Below, piece by piece: positions 966 to 59,500 of a stretch of 64,000 bases of DNA. Under the pieces are notes generated by a model. It worked only from the letters and a program-made list of their open reading frames with translations, searched no databases and was not told where the DNA came from. A program made the position numbers and the translations under genes. Numbering within the stretch: position 1 is the first letter of the stretch; each line of letters starts with the position of its first letter. The DNA is from Escherichia coli (lineage in GTDB: Bacteria > Pseudomonadota > Gammaproteobacteria > Enterobacterales > Enterobacteriaceae), in the NCBI RefSeq assembly GCF_050320075.1, contig NZ_CP190018.1. One strand, given 5' to 3'.

Positions 966-1045
966 GTTGTAGGCCGGATAAGGCTTTTACGCCGCATCCG
1001 GCAGCCGTGGCCTGATATGACGCTCGCGCGTCTTATCAGGCCAAC
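966..1045. repeat. REP/BIME-type palindromic element between infB and rbfA
   Basis: Motif gccggataaggc...gccgcatccggc plus an inverted partner, typical of REP sequences. Confidence 0.55.
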
Positions 1046-1077
1046 GTGAACAGCCCTTCCACCTGAAATTAATTTTT

Positions 1078-9724: not shown

Positions 9725-9729
9725 TCAGC

Positions 9730-9835
9730 GGTGCCTTATCCGACATTTCTGCTGCCTACACAATGCCTGATGCGCTTCGCTTATCAGGTCTACGTAGGAC
9801 AGCGTTGCCATCTCGGATAAGGCTTCCCGCGTTAA
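9730..9835. repeat. REP-like palindromic elements between mtr and yhbW
   Basis: gcgcttcgcttatcaggtctacg and cggataaggcttcccgcg motifs. Confidence 0.45.
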
Positions 9836-17199: not shown

Positions 17200-17320
17200 G
17201 ATGTTGGATGCTCCTGAATACAGCACTGGACGGTCCCCTCTCCCCTTTGGGGAGAGGGTTAGGGTGAGGGGAACAGGTCGGCTAAGGTGTGAATATTTAC
17301 TTCAACGACCGATCAATGGC

Positions 17321-20969: not shown

Positions 20970-21833
20970 ATGAAACAACACCAATCGGCGGATAATTCTC
21001 AGGGCCAGCTTTACATTGTACCGACGCCAATCGGCAATCTGGCGGATATCACCCAGCGTGCGTTGGAGGTATTACAGGCCGTTGATCTGATTGCCGCCGA
21101 GGATACGCGTCACACCGGTTTATTGCTGCAACATTTTGGGATTAATGCTCGGTTGTTTGCGCTGCACGACCATAACGAACAACAAAAAGCCGAAACGCTG
21201 CTGGCGAAGCTGCAAGAGGGGCAAAACATTGCGCTGGTTTCCGATGCCGGAACGCCGCTAATTAACGATCCTGGCTACCATCTGGTGCGTACCTGCCGTG
21301 AAGCGGGGATTCGCGTGGTGCCGCTACCCGGGCCGTGTGCTGCTATCACTGCGTTAAGCGCCGCGGGTTTACCATCCGATCGTTTTTGTTATGAAGGCTT
21401 TTTACCTGCCAAATCAAAAGGCCGCCGTGATGCGCTAAAAGCCATTGAAGCGGAGCCGCGCACGCTGATTTTTTATGAATCTACCCACCGTCTGTTAGAT
21501 AGCCTGGAAGATATCGTTGCGGTATTAGGCGAATCCCGCTACGTCGTTCTGGCGCGTGAGCTGACCAAAACCTGGGAAACCATTCACGGCGCGCCCGTTG
21601 GCGAGCTGCTGGCGTGGGTCAAAGAAGATGAAAACCGTCGCAAAGGCGAAATGGTACTGATTGTCGAAGGCCATAAAGCACAGGAAGAAGACTTACCCGC
21701 CGATGCCCTGCGCACGCTGGCGCTGCTACAGGCAGAACTGCCACTGAAAAAAGCGGCGGCGCTGGCAGCAGAAATTCACGGCGTGAAGAAAAATGCGCTG
21801 TATAAGTATGCACTGGAGCAGCAGGGAGAGTGA
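20970..21833 (+). CDS. rsmI: 16S rRNA 2'-O-ribose C1402 methyltransferase
   Basis: 287-aa ORF; divergent from lpoA. Confidence 0.88.
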
Positions 21834-21882
21834 TTACAGGCGTCGCAGCAGGAATAGCGTTGCAACGCCTGTAGCAGGCGAG

Positions 21883-22650
21883 TTAACGACGACACATCTC
21901 ATCAATCATGCATGTGAAATAGTTATGCAGCCATAAAAATGAAGCCGGGATAGCGGTAGAGACTTTAGCCGTGAGAAAACGATCTGTCGCATCCTGCTTT
22001 CCTTCGCCAGTCACCAGTAACAAAACTTCGCGGGCATTGAGAATATCCTTCAGGCCTAAGGTGATCCCACGAGTCACGGGACGGCCCGCGGTTTTTAACA
22101 TCTCATGTTGCTGTGTTCTGGCATCAAGTTGACTGATATGGCAGGCCGGTTGCAGGTTTTCTCCCGGTTCGTTCAGCCCAAGATGACCGTTTTTCCCCAA
22201 TCCGAGAACGCATAAATCCAGGCCGCCTTTGCGCGCAATCAGGTTCGTTACCCGTTCGCACTCTGTCTCATTTATCTCTTCGGAGCGAAAGCTGATGAGC
22301 TGGTCTTCACGTAGCCCCAGCGGCTGCACGATATGCTGTTGTAGGAAAGTTTCGCAGGTGCCAGGCATAGTTAATGGCAGATCCACCCATTCGTCGAGCT
22401 TCACGAAGGTGAGATGGCTGACATCAACCTGCTGCTGGTGGATTTTTTCTACCAGATAATGATACGTCAGTAATGGCGTGGCTCCGGTCGCCAGGCAAAT
22501 CACGGCATCCGGTTTGCTACGGATCACGGCCAATAAATATTCGCTGGCACGTTCACTTAACGCCGTATAGTTTTCAACTTGTTGAAGGGTTTGCACAGGA
22601 TGAAATTCCTTTAGTAAAGAGGCACCACCAGACGCAGTGCCTCGTTCCAT
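21883..22650 (-). CDS. agaI: Galactosamine-6-phosphate isomerase/deaminase-like (NagB family)
   Basis: 255-aa ORF, NagB/RpiA-like; last gene of the aga cluster. Confidence 0.82.
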   Translation of the reverse strand: MERGTASGGASLLKEFHPVQTLQQVENYTALSERASEYLLAVIRSKPDAVICLATGATPLLTYHYLVEKIHQQQVDVSHLTFVKLDEWVDLPLTMPGTCETFLQQHIVQPLGLREDQLISFRSEEINETECERVTNLIARKGGLDLCVLGLGKNGHLGLNEPGENLQPACHISQLDARTQQHEMLKTAGRPVTRGITLGLKDILNAREVLLLVTGEGKQDATDRFLTAKVSTAIPASFLWLHNYFTCMIDEMCRR

Positions 22651-26944: not shown

Positions 26945-27134
26945 AACTCAATCCTTAGTCTGATGAACTTGACGTCGGGCGTTGTCGCTTTCGCTTACCT
27001 TTCGTTTCATTTCACTTGGTGATGTCTTTCGTTGATTAAAATCTATAGAAAAGAAACTGAAAGTTCAATGGAGAAAAAAGAAATAAAACGAAATTTGTGA
27101 TCGTTGAAAGAAAAGACAAGGGAAGATTAAAGAA
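26945..27134. promoter_or_regulatory. agaS promoter region with repeated ctttcgttt/gaaacgaaa-type motifs (candidate AgaR operators)
   Basis: Several copies of TTTCGTTT-like words in both orientations upstream of agaS. Confidence 0.45.
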
Positions 27135-27139
27135 TTGCA

Positions 27140-27230
27140 TGATGACGTTGCTATGTGCACCGATTGCCGGATGCGGCGTACCGTAGGTCGCATAAGACGC
27201 GTCAGCGTCGCATCCGACACCGCTGTACAG
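27140..27230. repeat. REP-like palindromic elements between agaA and agaS
   Basis: gccggatgcggcgtaccgtaggtcgcataagacgcgtcagcgtcgcatccgacacc. Confidence 0.45.
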
Positions 27231-27294
27231 ATCAAAAAGAAAGAAAAAGAAAGGCCTTACGGGGGAAGTGAAGGCCCAATAAAGGAGCAAACCA

Positions 27295-28428
27295 TCAAAA
27301 CGAAGCTAATTGACCCTGAATCCAGATTTGTTGCACATGCAGCCCGCTATCCAGCGCAACGACGCTGGCGCGTTTGCCCGGTTTAAGCGATCCCAGAACA
27401 TCATCAACACCCAGCATACGCGCCGGATGCAGCGACGCCATATGGATGGCTTCCGCAGGCGTTACGTCCGTCAACTCGACCATATTGCGCACTGCCGCAT
27501 CAACAGACAGCGTACTGCCCGCCAGTCCACCGGACGCGGTACGGACAACGCCACCGTGCATCTGCACTTCTTCGCCACATAACGTATAGCGACCATCCGG
27601 CATCCCGGCTGCCTGCATCGCGTCGGTGATGAGCACGATTCTCTCTTTCGCACAGCAACAACACAGCGACATCGCCGCCGGATGCACATGATGACCATCG
27701 GCTATCAGTTCCAGCCAGGCGCGCTTGTCCGTTAATCCCGCGCCAACCATTCCCGGTTCGCGGTGATGTAAACCTGTCATCCCGTTATAGCAATGCACCA
27801 GGCCGTCGGCACCAGCGTCAAACGCGGCACGGGTTTGTTGCCAGGTCGCCGCGCTATGCCCCAGCATCACCCGTACGTTTTGCTGTTTAAGATGGCGGAT
27901 GGCCTGCAATGCCCCTTCTTTTTCCGGTGCCAGCGCTACCACGCGCAAGGTGTGCTGAGAAACGGCAATCAATTGATCCAGCTCGGCAATTTCCAGCTCG
28001 CGAAACAGCTCCGGCGGATGCGCGCCTTTATTCTGCGGCGTGAAGTATGGTCCTTCGAGATAACTCCCCAGCACTTGCGCACCAGGTCCGTCGCGTTGGC
28101 AACGTTGAGCAATACGTTTCAGCGCCGCATGAATGGTATTAAGCGGCGCGGTTACGGTGGTCGGTAACCAACTGCCGACACCTTCGCGTGCTTTGTGCAT
28201 TGCCAGCTTGTCGAGCACATCCGGCGCGTCATCCATTACATCAACGCCCGCACCACCGTGTACATGGGTGTCGATGTAAGCGGGGCAGAGCAGTTCCGCA
28301 TCGCGTTCAGTCACGCCCACTGGAATCGGTTCGATTGCTGCGATTACACCGTCAGCAATACGCAACTGATGGTCATCGAGCCATCCCTCTTCAGTCAGCA
28401 GCCTTCTGGCGCGCAGAACGTGTGTCAT
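27295..28428 (-). CDS. agaA: N-acetylgalactosamine-6-phosphate deacetylase, full length
   Basis: ORF 27295..28449; start at MTHVLRARRLLTEEG gives 377 aa; NagA-like metal-binding motifs. Confidence 0.85.
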   Translation of the reverse strand: MTHVLRARRLLTEEGWLDDHQLRIADGVIAAIEPIPVGVTERDAELLCPAYIDTHVHGGAGVDVMDDAPDVLDKLAMHKAREGVGSWLPTTVTAPLNTIHAALKRIAQRCQRDGPGAQVLGSYLEGPYFTPQNKGAHPPELFRELEIAELDQLIAVSQHTLRVVALAPEKEGALQAIRHLKQQNVRVMLGHSAATWQQTRAAFDAGADGLVHCYNGMTGLHHREPGMVGAGLTDKRAWLELIADGHHVHPAAMSLCCCCAKERIVLITDAMQAAGMPDGRYTLCGEEVQMHGGVVRTASGGLAGSTLSVDAAVRNMVELTDVTPAEAIHMASLHPARMLGVDDVLGSLKPGKRASVVALDSGLHVQQIWIQGQLASF

Positions 28429-28859
28429 ATTCCTTCCTCGACCGGACATTCTTCATGGCAGCGGCCTAACTCGTCCACCAAACTGGTCAGCCCACGGTGT
28501 CCACACTCCAGCGCCTGCACACGGAACTCTTCACCGCTTAACCCTTCGCGCTCCAGCACCATCTCCAGTAGCAGTTGCAAATTGGTGCCGGTGATCACTT
28601 CACAGCCCGGTTTTTGCATCGCCAGCGTTGAAGCTACGCGAAACGGCGTGCCGCCCAGCAAATCCGTCAGAAAAACAATGCCGTCTTCACAATCGAGTTG
28701 GGCGATGGCCTCTTCAAGCTGCGATGTAAGCTGCGCGGTGCTTGAGGTTTCGGGAAAATCGATGGCAATAAACTGCGATTGCTCGCCGAGGATTTGCTTC
28801 ATTGCTTTTTCCATGCCGCTGGCAAATCCGCCATGCCCTGTCAAAATAATACTTAACAT
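28425..28859 (-). CDS. agaF: PTS N-acetylgalactosamine-specific EIIA component
   Basis: 144-aa ORF MLSIILTGHGGFASG (mannose-family IIA). Confidence 0.82.
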   Translation of the reverse strand: MLSIILTGHGGFASGMEKAMKQILGEQSQFIAIDFPETSSTAQLTSQLEEAIAQLDCEDGIVFLTDLLGGTPFRVASTLAMQKPGCEVITGTNLQLLLEMVLEREGLSGEEFRVQALECGHRGLTSLVDELGRCHEECPVEEGI

Positions 28860-28876
28860 CTAATACCTCATTGTAT

Positions 28877-29761
28877 TTAAAGGAAATGACAGAATTTACC
28901 GACGATACCGAGAACCACGGTAACTGCAATCAGGCGCAGCGGACTCCAGCCGCGGCGTACCAGCCAGAACATGGTCAGGGTGTAGACCAGCGGTAAGAAG
29001 GCAGGCATCAGTTTGTCGATAACATCAGCCTGTAACTTAACCACTGCATCGCCAGCGGTGATTTCCAGCGTGGTGCTTAAACGAACATAGGTTGCTACCA
29101 GCGCGCCGATTACCGTCATCCCAACGATTGACGCAGCATGGCCGACTTTTTTGGTATTCGCTTTAATGAGTGGAATCGCCGCCACGCCCATGCGATAAGC
29201 ATAATGCGCCAGACCAAAACGCAGCCCCAGGTGTACCACGTTGAACAGCACAATAAAGACGACAGCGCCAAGAATAGAGCCTTGTAGCGCGAGGCTTGCA
29301 CCAATCCCGCCACAAATCGGCAGTAGCGTCAGCCAGAACATTGCATCGCCAATCCCGCCGAGCGGCGCACCGACGGCAATTTTGGTGCTCTGAATACTGT
29401 TAACGTCCTGCTTAGAACGCTCCATCGCAAGGATAATGCCGATAACAAACGTCACCAGAAACGGATGGGTATTGAAGAAACCCATATGCCCCTTCATGGC
29501 GCGCGCCAGGTCGCGTTTATTAGTGTGGATCTTTTTCAGAGCAGGCAGCAGACCGTACAACCAGCCGGAAGCCTGCATACGTTCGTAGTTAAAAGACGCT
29601 TGTAACAGCATGGAACGCCAGGCGACGCGGTTGATATCTTTTTTTGTCAGCTCTGCGCCAATGCTCTGATCTTCATACACGTTTTCATTGATGCCAGTCA
29701 GCAGTGTTTCTTCGTTTTCACTGACGTTCGGCAGGGTGGTTTGATTAGATGCCATCTTCAA
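28877..29761 (-). CDS. agaE: PTS N-acetylgalactosamine-specific EIID component
   Basis: 294-aa ORF, paralogous to agaD (shared SFNYERMQA motif). Confidence 0.82.
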   Translation of the reverse strand: MKMASNQTTLPNVSENEETLLTGINENVYEDQSIGAELTKKDINRVAWRSMLLQASFNYERMQASGWLYGLLPALKKIHTNKRDLARAMKGHMGFFNTHPFLVTFVIGIILAMERSKQDVNSIQSTKIAVGAPLGGIGDAMFWLTLLPICGGIGASLALQGSILGAVVFIVLFNVVHLGLRFGLAHYAYRMGVAAIPLIKANTKKVGHAASIVGMTVIGALVATYVRLSTTLEITAGDAVVKLQADVIDKLMPAFLPLVYTLTMFWLVRRGWSPLRLIAVTVVLGIVGKFCHFL

Positions 29762-30524
29762 ATTCCTCTTTCTGTGCCGCAGGTTGAGTCGGTTCAGGAG
29801 ATTTACGCAGCAGGTCGATCAGCGCCATCGCCAGCGCGGCGGCAGCAATAGCCAGCACCGGTAACTTGAGCCAGGCTGCGGCAACAAAGCCCAGGATGAA
29901 GTAGGGGATGTAGACGTTTTTCATCATGATTTTCAGCAGCACGGCAAAACCGATTGCTGGCATGATGCCGCCCGCGACGCCGAGGCCGTCGATTAATCGT
30001 TGCGGCAGGACATCAATGATGGTTTTTGCATGTTCCGCGCCGAAGTAGATAGGCAGGAAAGCGCAGAGAAAATAGAAAGTGCCGAGTGCCAGCAGTGCCA
30101 GATAGTTCACGCGTTCAATGCCGCGAGTATCGGCGTTCTCCGCCATCCGGTCGCAGCGGGACATTACGCCAGACATCACCGAGAACAGGAAGGTAATCCC
30201 CATCTGTACTGCGACAGCGAAAGGTACGGCGACACCGACCGCGACATCGGGTTTCACGCCAGTAGTAATGGCAAACGCCGTGCCGACGATAGTACCGATA
30301 ATCACGTTAGGCGGTTGTGCGCCTGCCAGCGGGGCCAGCCCCATCCACACCAGTTCCAGCGTACCGCCGGTTAAAATACCGGTATGCAGATCGCCAAGTA
30401 CCAGCCCGACTAACGGGCCGAGGACCACCGGGCGGTGCATATGGGTTAAGCCGTTAAACATATCCAGGCCAGCGATAAAGGCGATAATGCCCAACGCGAA
30501 TGCCTGCAACAGACTGATTTCCAT
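29745..30524 (-). CDS. agaW: PTS N-acetylgalactosamine-specific EIIC component, full length
   Basis: 259-aa membrane ORF, paralogous to agaC. Confidence 0.82.
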   Translation of the reverse strand: MEISLLQAFALGIIAFIAGLDMFNGLTHMHRPVVLGPLVGLVLGDLHTGILTGGTLELVWMGLAPLAGAQPPNVIIGTIVGTAFAITTGVKPDVAVGVAVPFAVAVQMGITFLFSVMSGVMSRCDRMAENADTRGIERVNYLALLALGTFYFLCAFLPIYFGAEHAKTIIDVLPQRLIDGLGVAGGIMPAIGFAVLLKIMMKNVYIPYFILGFVAAAWLKLPVLAIAAAALAMALIDLLRKSPEPTQPAAQKEEFEDGI

Positions 30525-33369: not shown

Positions 33370-33423
33370 GAAAGGGTGCCCGCTGGTCAACACGAATGCG
33401 TTCGGCGGGCATTGTGAACACCA

Positions 33424-33525: not shown

Positions 33526-33540
33526 GGTAATGACTCCAAC

Positions 33541-34044
33541 TTATTGATAGTGTTTTATGTTCAGATAATGCCCGATGACTTTGTCATGCAGCTCCACCGA
33601 TTTTGAGAACGACAGCGACTTCCGTCCCAGCCGTGCCAGGTGCTGCCTCAGATTCAGGTTATGCCGCTCAATTCGCTGCGTATATCGCTTGCTGATTACG
33701 TGCAGCTTTCCCTTCAGGCGGGATTCATACAGCGGCCAGCCATCCGTCATCCATATCACCACGTCAAAGGGTGACAGCAGGCTCATAAGACGCCCCAGCG
33801 TCGCCATAGTGCGTTCACCGAATACGTGCGCAACAACCGTCTTCCGGAGCCTGTCATACGCGTAAAACAGCCAGCGCTGGCGCGATTTAGCCCCGACGTA
33901 TCCCCACTGTTCGTCCATTTCCGCGCAGACGATGACGTCACTGCCCGGCTGTATGCGCGAGGTTACCGACTGCGGCCTGAGTTTTTTAAATGGCGGAAAA
34001 TCGTGTTGAGGCCAACGCCCATAATGCGGGCAGTTGCCCGGCAT
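33541..34044 (-). CDS. insB: IS1 transposase InsB (expressed as InsAB' by frameshift)
   Basis: 167-aa ORF, recognised IS1 InsB sequence. Confidence 0.9.
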
Positions 34045-34238
34045 CCAACGCCATTCATGGCCATATCAATGATTTTCTGGTGCGTACCGGGTTGAGAAGC
34101 GGTGTAAGTGAACTGCAGTTGCCATGTTTTACGGCAGTGAGAGCAGAGATAGCGCTGATGTCCGGCGGTGCTTTTGCCGTTACGCACCACCCCGTCAGTA
34201 GCTGAACAGGAGGGACAGCTGATAGAAACAGAAGCCAC
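33963..34238 (-). CDS. insA: IS1 protein InsA (transposition repressor)
   Basis: 91-aa [43 protein letters not shown]..., canonical InsA zinc-finger protein. Confidence 0.92.
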
Positions 34239-34293
34239 TGGAGCACCTCAAAAACACCATCATACACTAAATCAGTAAGTTGGCAGCATCACC

Positions 34294-38443: not shown

Positions 38444-39214
38444 ATGAATAACAATGTTTTCCCGAATAAATTCAAAGCCGCACTGGCTGCGAAACAGGTA
38501 CAAATTGGTTGCTGGTCAGCACTCTCTAACCCGATTAGCACTGAAGTTCTTGGTTTGGCTGGGTTTGACTGGCTGGTGCTGGATGGCGAACATGCGCCAA
38601 ACGATATCTCCACGTTTATTCCGCAGTTAATGGCCCTGAAAGGCAGCGCCAGCGCGCCAGTAGTGCGAGTGCCGACCAACGAGCCGGTAATTATTAAGCG
38701 TCTTCTGGATATCGGTTTTTATAACTTCCTGATTCCTTTTGTAGAAACAAAAGAGGAAGCAGAGCAGGCGGTGGCATCAACCCGTTACCCACCGGAAGGC
38801 ATTCGCGGCGTCTCCGTTTCTCACCGCGCCAATATGTTTGGCACCGTGGCGGATTATTTCGCTCAGTCGAACAAGAACATCACCATTCTGGTCCAGATAG
38901 AAAGTCAGCAGGGCGTAGATAACGTCGATGCCATTGCCGCTACCGAAGGCGTAGACGGTATCTTCGTCGGCCCCAGCGATCTGGCTGCGGCATTAGGCCA
39001 TCTCGGCAATGCCTCGCACCCGGATGTACAAAAAGCAATCCAGCATATTTTTAACCGTGCCAGTGCGCACGGCAAACCCAGCGGTATCCTCGCACCGGTC
39101 GAAGCCGATGCGCGTCGTTATCTGGAATGGGGCGCGACGTTTGTGGCTGTCGGCAGCGATCTCGGCGTCTTCCGCTCTGCCACTCAGAAACTGGCTGATA
39201 CCTTTAAAAAATAA
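38444..39214 (+). CDS. garL: 5-keto-4-deoxy-D-glucarate (2-dehydro-3-deoxygalactarate) aldolase
   Basis: 256-aa HpcH/HpaI-family aldolase ORF. Confidence 0.9.
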
Positions 39215-40134: not shown

Positions 40135-40230
40135 TGACGTCGTGCCCGGATGGCGTATTGCAATCCGGGCCTGGAATCCAGGCCGAATAAGAGAAACGCC
40201 CTCCGGCGTCATGTGGTAACAGGCATAGGT

Positions 40231-41408: not shown

Positions 41409-41785
<377 letters not shown>

Positions 41786-41795
41786 GATTTACGTA

Positions 41796-41826
41796 AAAAC
41801 CCGCTTCGGCGGGTTTTTGCTTTTGG
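41796..41826 (+). terminator. rnpB intrinsic terminator
   Basis: aaaaacccgcttcggcgggtttttgcttttg hairpin plus T-run. Confidence 0.8.
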
Positions 41827-41836
41827 AGGGGCAGAA

Positions 41837-41948
41837 AGATGAATGACTGTCCACGACACTATACCCAAAAGAAAGCGGCTTATCGGTCAGTTTCACCTGG
41901 TTTAACGAAAACCCGCCAGCGTAAACTGGCGGGTTTTTGCTTTTTGGA
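41837..41948 (+). repeat. Repeat unit duplicating the rnpB 3' end plus terminator (rnpB-downstream repeat)
   Basis: agatgaatgactgtccacgaca...cggcttatcggtcagtttcacctg...aaaacccgcc...ggcgggtttttgcttt recurs about 100 bp downstream of the first copy at 41736..41829; partial third start at about 41957. Confidence 0.8.
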
Positions 41949-42012
41949 GCATAGTGTAAGATGAATAAATATCTACGGTATTAATAATAGACTTTGTAAG
42001 AAATTATTAAGT

Positions 42013-56289: not shown

Positions 56290-56334
56290 GTATCGTGCCG
56301 GATAAGGCGTTTACGCCGCATCCGGCACCTGTCT
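56290..56334. repeat. REP element after cyuA
   Basis: gtatcgtgccggataaggcgtttacgccgcatccggcacctg. Confidence 0.55.
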
Positions 56335-56499
56335 TTACGCAGTAGCTTCATCCTCGGCTAAACGCGTTTCAGCATCCGCGACGATGGCTTCCAGCTCGCT
56401 CAACATCTCTTCATAGCCAAAATTATTGGCGGTGCGAGCAGGTTCTTTCGCCACCACGGGCTTCACTGGCTGACGCTTTTTGGCCGATTTTTTACTCAT
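56335..56499 (-). CDS. yhaL: Small uncharacterized protein YhaL (54 aa)
   Basis: Hand translation of minus strand: MSKKSAKKRQPVKPVVAKEPARTANNFGYEEMLSELEAIVADAETRLAEDEATA*; below ORF-track cutoff. Confidence 0.55.
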   Translation of the reverse strand: MSKKSAKKRQPVKPVVAKEPARTANNFGYEEMLSELEAIVADAETRLAEDEATA

Positions 56500-58631: not shown

Positions 58632-58872
58632 AAAAACATCCCTTTAATTAAAAGTGACGAAAGTCTATTCCGGGTATTGTGTAAATGCTATTCGTATCTT
58701 TCTTTTTCGGATGTTATAAAGGTTTTGATATTTAAGATAAATACATGGTTATTTTTTATATGTAATTTATATAACGACATTGAAATATTTTAAATAAACA
58801 TTAGTAAATTATTCATTCATCAACATGATGATAAAAGCCGGATGAGTCAGACATCCGGCGAGTAGATTTGTT

Positions 58873-59339: not shown

Positions 59340-59500
59340 GCCGTGAAGGCGCGCTAAGACTGATGACAAGCGCAAAATCGCCAGATGCGCTACGCTTATC
59401 TGGCCTACGCGGCATTGTAACATATTGAATATAAACGTTTTGTAGGTTGGAGAAGACGTTCACGCCGCATCCGACATAAATAACACGCACTTAGCTAATA
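59340..59500. repeat. REP-like palindromic elements between yhaH and yqjG
   Basis: gccagatgcgctacgcttatctggcctacgcgg and cacgccgcatccgac motifs. Confidence 0.45.

Follow-up and report, generated by a model that had tools for sequence, protein, structure and literature searches.

Introduction

The REP elements of Escherichia coli, known from the work of Gilson, Hofnung and Bachellier and named here as in Ton-Hoang et al. 2012 (PMC3333891), are imperfect palindromes of 30–40 nt with a GTAG at their 5′ side. In the account of Ton-Hoang et al., TnpAREP (RayT) binds single-stranded REPs only when both the GTAG and the mismatch in the stem are present, cleavage takes place either in the linker or at the partner unit of inverse orientation, and the L linker often carries an IHF site (PMC3333891). 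According to a 2026 preprint, REP325, a BIME-2 element represented in Rfam by RF02564, does not compact the chromosome; within the operon where it resides, it stabilises the mRNA and attenuates in a partly Rho-dependent manner (10.64898/2026.03.23.713779). Published REP effects vary with context. The supplement of the preprint lists in vitro Rho-binding regions that overlap REP239 and REP241 of K-12 (10.64898/2026.03.23.713779).

We analysed a stretch of 64,000 nucleotides, hereafter the window, which is E. coli chromosome in reverse orientation, collinear with MG1655 from ~3,314,300 down to ~3,250,000; it is 97–98% identical to K-12 and, apart from one insertion, 99.97% identical to strain CFSAN061763. 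Its REP-type palindromes resemble the REP family in being extragenic imperfect palindromes of 30–37 nt, and depart from typical REPs in that two units are without GTAG, one is without hairpin stability and three further copies are only halves. The pair between infB and rbfA (site 1) has the arrangement of REP325, a Y REP followed by a short linker and an inverted Z2, but it is a single pair instead of a tandem array, its linker measures 6 nt instead of 11 nt and its Z2 tail reads CAAC instead of CTAC. The element between yhaH and yqjG (site 5) is like the IHF-binding BIME-1 (RIB/RIP) elements in its layout and in the linker core TATTGAAT, except that its Y unit is decayed and its IHF site is a predicted one.

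Results

REP-type units at five intergenic sites

We scanned both strands of the 64 kb by edit distance against consensus sequences of the Y, Z1 and Z2 types, the Y and Z2 consensus being those of K-12 REP325 and the Z1 consensus having been confirmed in K-12 reference loci. Seven units were recovered at 1–7 edits (Table 1), while the best matches in 50 dinucleotide shuffles lay at distances of at least 9 edits for Y, 7 for Z1 and 10 for Z2. In parallel, a reference set of 36 REP units was collected from unrelated K-12 DNA, 106 kb in total, at loci that include REP325, both rayT flanks, malE–malF, lamB–malM, ubiA–plsB and others, and a covariance model (R1) was built on an alignment of 25 distinct K-12 unit sequences, all originating outside the window's region. 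In this reference alignment 95.5% of the cells are paired, and compensatory G-C/U-A changes are found at two positions that separate Y from Z. Applied to the 64 kb with its filters off, R1 returned seven strong units (27.8–49.9 bits, E values of 1.5e-6 to 9e-14) identical to the edit-distance set; no other significant unit was detected in the 128 kb of strand searched, the next matches being opposite-strand echoes and, from E ~0.2, noise. R1 set the limits of three units slightly differently from the edit scan, at 1010–1045, 56295–56327 and 59379–59408. Lastly, the Rfam model RF02564 matched positions 972–1042 on the + strand at full length (model positions 1–77 of 77) with 76.1 bits for a gathering score of 59.5; it matched 56296–56340 below the gathering score, and the remaining sites were below it or undetected. 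Since the consensus scan, the independent covariance model and the Rfam model agree, we assign the seven units to the REP family, and we are confident that the five palindromic sites are copies of the E. coli REP family, some single and some paired as BIMEs.

Table 1. Units, linkers and half-unit relics at the five sites. Edits are counted from the Y, Z1 or Z2 consensus; R1 gives the covariance-model score in bits with its E value; Hairpin gives the predicted folding energy in kcal/mol with its z score against shuffled sequences.
Site	Feature	Position	Strand	Edits	R1 (E)	Hairpin (z)	Remarks
1, infB–rbfA	Y-type REP	969..1003	+	1	49.9 (9e-14)	-19 (-4.5)	GTAG intact at 969–972; stem 973–1002 with AA/GC internal mismatch
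1, infB–rbfA	Linker	1004..1009	.				GCCGTG, 6 nt, head-to-head between Y and inverted Z2
1, infB–rbfA	Z2-type REP (iREP on + strand)	1010..1046	-	5	27.8 (1.5e-6)	-26.8 (-7.1)	GTAG degraded to GTTG
2, mtr–yhbW	Relic half unit	9729..9760	-		8.9 (2.2)		GTAG and exact CGGATAAGGC (9733–9742, -) kept, ~11 nt inserted between; partner arm absent
2, mtr–yhbW	Z1-type REP	9764..9793	-	2	34.0 (1.4e-8)		GTAG present
2, mtr–yhbW	Relic half unit	9794..9826	+				GTAGG, ~14 nt, then CGGATAAGGC at 9814–9823 (+); 3′ arm absent
3, agaA–agaS	Inverted Y, 5′ half only	27165..27180	+				TGCCGGATGCGGCGTA; exact 13-mer at 27166–27178
3, agaA–agaS	Z2-type REP	27183..27219	+	7	41.6 (4.8e-11)	-16.5 (-4.8)	GTAG
4, cyuA–yhaL	Single Y-type REP	56293..56327	+	2	49.4 (1.4e-13)	-24.9/-26.4	TCGT instead of GTAG; fills the 59-bp gap between convergent cyuA and yhaL
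5, yhaH–yqjG	Z1-type REP (iREP on + strand)	59380..59408 (59380–59409 in the edit scan)	-	3	31.4 (1e-7)		GTAG intact
5, yhaH–yqjG	Linker	59409..59441	.				33 nt, tail-to-tail, BIME-1 L type, core TAACATATTGAAT
5, yhaH–yqjG	Y-type REP	59442..59476	+	6	41.9 (3.9e-11)	-6.7 (0.0)	GTAG; decayed

The set comprises three Y, two Z1 and two Z2 units, to which three half-unit relics are added, distributed over five intergenic sites. The exact 10-mer CGGATAAGGC occurs four times in the window for 0.12 occurrences expected, and GCCGGATGCGGCG, at no more than one mismatch, five times for the same expectation; these short arms confirm the three relics. A GTAG stands 5′ of the stem foot in five of the seven units (at 969, 9793 on the minus strand, 27183, 59408 on the minus strand, and 59442) and is missing in the two others, in which 1043–1046 on the minus strand reads GTTG and 56293–56296 reads TCGT. 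The stem mismatch is present in the folds, as an AA/GC internal loop in Y units and as a one-base mismatch in Z2 units, and six of the seven hairpins are more stable than shuffled sequences, with z scores of -2.2 to -7.1. All seven units are located in verified intergenic intervals, at gene 3′ ends; gene coordinates were transferred from an annotated relative and checked by their start and stop codons. The flanking genes are in tandem at sites 1, 3 and 5 and convergent at sites 2 and 4. The same family numbers 7 units in the window, 36 in the 106 kb of unrelated K-12 DNA and 13 in syntenic K-12.

A preliminary description made from the letters of the window had placed REP motifs at these five sites, after infB, between mtr and yhbW, between agaA and agaS, after cyuA, and between yhaH and yqjG. 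The seven units found by consensus scan and R1 all fall within them, and the coordinates and gene context given are right at each; the formal scan by REP consensus or covariance model that it had proposed as a check was run, and matches at all five. Its view that the motifs are ordinary for E. coli and not part of novel regulatory systems holds at five sites out of five, by the consensus scan, R1 and Rfam and, at two of them, by coincidence with the K-12 elements REP241 and REP239. The REP/BIME elements here are thus ordinary and already known, and represent no new regulatory system.

The pair between infB and rbfA

At site 1 a short linker joins a Y unit to a Z2 unit of inverse orientation, which is a BIME-2 layout, and head-to-head linkers of the K-12 reference pairs span 5–15 nt. 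We found no tandem BIME-2 copies at this site, neither in the window nor in the five other alleles examined, each of which holds one pair only. Judged by its sequence, site 1 is best called a single BIME-2-type or atypical pair. The two REP hairpins lie 14–17 nt after the infB stop codon, and the predicted fold of the infB 3′ UTR (overall z of -8.25) places them upstream of a separate terminator-type hairpin, AAAAAGGGGC-UAUG-GCCCCUUUUUU, at ~1077–1100 with U6. A terminator-pattern tool made no call on the ~1077–1100 hairpin, for which we relied on the fold instead; the call was probably missed because the hairpin's own A-tract pairs with its U-tract. A 7-bp RNA helix, GGGUUGU/ACAGCCC (964–970 with 1050–1056), is also predicted, which encloses both REP hairpins and starts 8 nt past the infB stop codon; in K-12 its left half reads GGGUUCC.

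What such a pair would do follows from published work on the family. Transcribed REP hairpins in a 3′ UTR would act locally and in a manner that depends on context. They may impede the 3′→5′ exonucleolytic decay of the mRNA upstream, and may serve as partial, often Rho-dependent, attenuators of read-through, and L linkers could in addition bind IHF at the DNA level. The most likely role of 966–1045 would be that of a decay barrier or an attenuator in the nusA–infB–rbfA transcript, upstream of the separate terminator hairpin.

A different reading would make 972–1042 a dedicated small-RNA gene of the naRNA4 (CssrE) type, whose transcript binds HU and helps to condense the nucleoid. It takes its appeal from the full-length RF02564 match above the gathering score and from Qian et al., who described naRNA4 from REP325 as an HU-binding RNA with a role in condensation (PMC4550694). 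However, RF02564 models one Y-linker-Z2 unit of REP325 and is matched by any Y + Z2 pair; because the model is itself a REP325 unit, the match at 972–1042 restates the REP pair and does not point to a specific gene. Moreover, no promoter-like site was found in 900–1200, and the condensation role of naRNA4 is now disputed (10.64898/2026.03.23.713779). We therefore consider a small-RNA gene at this position very improbable. Least credible of all, and in our view next to impossible, is the idea that the palindromes are locus-specific intrinsic (Rho-independent) terminators or protein operators instead of a repeat family, for although all seven lie at gene 3′ ends with stable hairpins, in a window that holds many true terminator hairpins, not one of the units has a T-run behind it, by sequence they belong to a family that is dispersed (in unrelated K-12 DNA, 36 units in 106 kb; E values down to 9e-14), and the hairpin-plus-U6 terminator of site 1 is a separate one, lying downstream at ~1077–1100. 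The seven units are best read as REP copies, and site 1 as a probable barrier to decay or attenuator.

Among 5426 complete E. coli genomes, 5416 have site 1 occupied. Over 136 bp, its identity to the window is at least 99% in 128 of these genomes and only 80–90% in 4691. When its alleles are aligned, two types can be told apart by changes concentrated in the left flank, in the linker and at the 5′ end of the Y unit. The commoner of the two, found in K-12, O157 and O25:H4, has CCAT in place of the window's GTAG.

The remaining REP sites

Site 4 differs in its architecture between the window and K-12. In K-12 this interval carries an iREP, a 33-nt linker and a Y REP, whereas the allele of the window is 73 bp shorter and retains a single Y unit. 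The junction falls exactly in GCCGGAT, a heptamer common to the two left arms, as would be expected after a deletion between short direct repeats; that the change went in this direction is our inference. Across the 5426 complete genomes the two-unit form is found in 3048, a 119-bp short type like that of the window in a minority, and there is at least one other class. The yhaL stop codon is 6 nt from the stem of the site 4 unit. Liang, Rudd and Deutscher (Mol Cell, 2015) reportedly described a rule by which translation is reduced when a REP lies no more than ~15 nt from a stop codon.

At site 5 an inverted Z1, a 33-nt L linker and a Y REP are assembled in single copy. The combination of z1 and y with a long conserved L linker is that of a BIME-1, and on this arrangement of its sequence we describe site 5 as BIME-1-like. 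Its linker aligns with those of the K-12 ubiA–plsB Z1-L-Y element and of K-12 site 4, the three having the core TATTGAAT in common. On the minus strand, the core ATTCAATATGTTA is a candidate IHF-like sequence, one mismatch away from WATCAANNNNTTR. The Y hairpin of site 5 was not more stable than its shuffled controls. Both flanking genes, yqjG and yhaH, are on the minus strand. We also considered as a REP the hairpin GCCGGATG-7nt-CATCCGGC at 58837–58859 and rejected it (R1 8.5 bits, E 3). This perfect 8-bp hairpin has the outer REP stem sequence without the inner stem, stands 14 nt past the yhaH stop codon and, on the minus strand, has TTTTAT directly behind it; most probably this is the yhaH terminator, though it could be what is left of an internally deleted REP.

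Sites 2 and 3 have curated counterparts in K-12, whose REP coordinates were taken from the supplement of the preprint (10.64898/2026.03.23.713779). REP241 (3304505–3304533 in K-12) maps to 9764–9792 of the window, so that the Z1 unit of site 2 is its orthologue; site 2 as a whole is 99% identical to K-12, and its minus-strand relic, which R1 scores only weakly, is 99% conserved there. REP239 maps to 27136–27217, and the Z2 unit of site 3 belongs to its orthologue. The half unit of site 3 differs from K-12, which has a complete Y iREP at this place (an R1 match at 38753–38785 of the K-12 segment L003). The genes agaA and agaS are in tandem on the minus strand. One further REP-like sequence, GCCGGATGCAGCG at 27422, has no partner arm and forms part of the coding region of agaA; it was treated as chance.

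Two other observations concern the agaA–agaS gap. Outside the REP, at 26960–27135 and 27240–27262, it holds unusually many repeated GAAAG/CTTTC tracts, which resemble the AgaR operator repeats at the agaS promoter. Just past the agaA stop codon, at 27263–27286 on the minus strand, there is a hairpin, GGCCTT-12nt-AAGGCC, with a T-rich run behind it.

Other intergenic hairpins

The preliminary description went too far in stating that REP elements explain most of the GC-rich intergenic palindromes. Both strands of the 48 intergenic regions were folded in successive 40-nt windows at every position, and non-overlapping minima of -13 kcal/mol or lower were retained: REP units or relics account for only 5–7 of the 35 strong hairpins obtained, and 4–5 of the 13 with a GC content of at least 0.6. 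The non-REP hairpins mostly precede T-runs, as after rpsO, pnp, deaD, rnpB, tdcG and yqjG, and one of them is a BoxC motif. Two related terminator-type hairpins (AAAACCCGC...GCGGGTTTTTG) are found 3′ of rnpB, at 41782–41950, where Rfam gives weak spurious matches to rnk_pseudo and rsmX.

Between the convergent genes agaR and yhaV, a hairpin at 33377–33405, identical in sequence in the window and in K-12, is the element that K-12 curators call REP238. Neither the window's copy nor that of K-12 matches R1 or any of the three consensus types (Y, Z1, Z2). On its sequence the REP238 label appears doubtful, and the absence of this hairpin from the five sites first listed is defensible, because it fails both scans. 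A borderline Z2 match at 33776–33812 (9 edits; R1 12.1 bits, E 0.2) belongs to an IS1 insertion and was discarded as a REP, and the garR–garK hairpins at 40144–40185 gave no R1 match at E ≤ 10.

Comparison with K-12 and other genomes

The window and syntenic K-12 differ in REP content as measured with R1, with 7 units at 5 loci in the former versus 13 units at 7 loci in the latter. Two K-12 REP loci are empty in the window, the pair 3′ of rnpB and REP240. The former, a Z1 + Y pair, sits in a 378-bp segment that K-12 alone has and that is absent from the window. REP240, composed of two units between yraQ and dolP, is present in K-12, while the same slot of the window is occupied by the BoxC motif CCCTCTCCCCTTTGGGGAGAGGGTTAGGGTGAGGGG.

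The BoxC/intrastrand-triplex motif CCCTCTCCCCTTTGGGGAGAGGGTTAGGGTGAGGGG lies within 17205–17300 of the window, with its core at 17236–17271, and differs by one base from the BoxC/intrastrand-triplex type-A motifs published for K-12 (PMC4666352). Its family occupies a median of 15 places per genome, and ~445 genomes match the window's sequence at an identity of at least 95%.

Three further differences lie outside the REP loci. A 768-bp IS1 (IS1B-like) at 33526–34293 interrupts yhaV, the toxin gene of the prlF–yhaV pair, and has 8 bp of target sequence, GTTTTTTT, duplicated at its borders; neither K-12 nor CFSAN061763 carries it, and its exact junctions are found in only 2 of the 5426 complete genomes (YZLc1-3 and Ec-U3). 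The yraHIJK fimbrial operon, present in K-12, is missing between rsmI and agaI (21826–21926). Conversely, the aga cluster is intact at 27853–30149 (agaW, agaE, agaF and a full-length agaA), where K-12 has a known deletion.

Discussion

REP alleles turn over rapidly between strains, and two of the sites in the window may suggest how. At cyuA–yhaL, a two-unit BIME appears, from the sequence of the junction, to have collapsed to one GTAG-less unit by recombination across the 7-nt GCCGGAT. At infB–rbfA, a ~50-bp tract holding a near-consensus Y unit with its GTAG is found in only ~2% of genomes, pointing to gene conversion with another REP copy as donor. That the allelic states at cyuA–yhaL, infB–rbfA and yraQ–dolP together record recent REP turnover without the need of a transposase is a tentative proposal, to which we give less than even weight. 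The rayT gene is not within the 64-kb window; it is present in single copy in 3575 of the 5426 complete E. coli genomes and absent from about a third. Since the site 4 unit and the Z2 unit of site 1 have lost their GTAG, the rules established in vitro predict that both should escape RayT binding.

For the annotation of this region, the hairpins should be labelled REP/BIME, and the naRNA4 match at 972–1042 should be read as a REP pair and not as a small-RNA gene; most of the remaining intergenic hairpins of the window are non-REP and need an explanation of their own. The difference of 7 versus 13 units illustrates the variation in REP content already reported among E. coli strains, which could tune the adjacent 3′ UTRs. 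If the polarity of the turnover events could be read from the E. coli tree, they would provide natural examples of REP arrays that shrink, are re-homogenised or are replaced.
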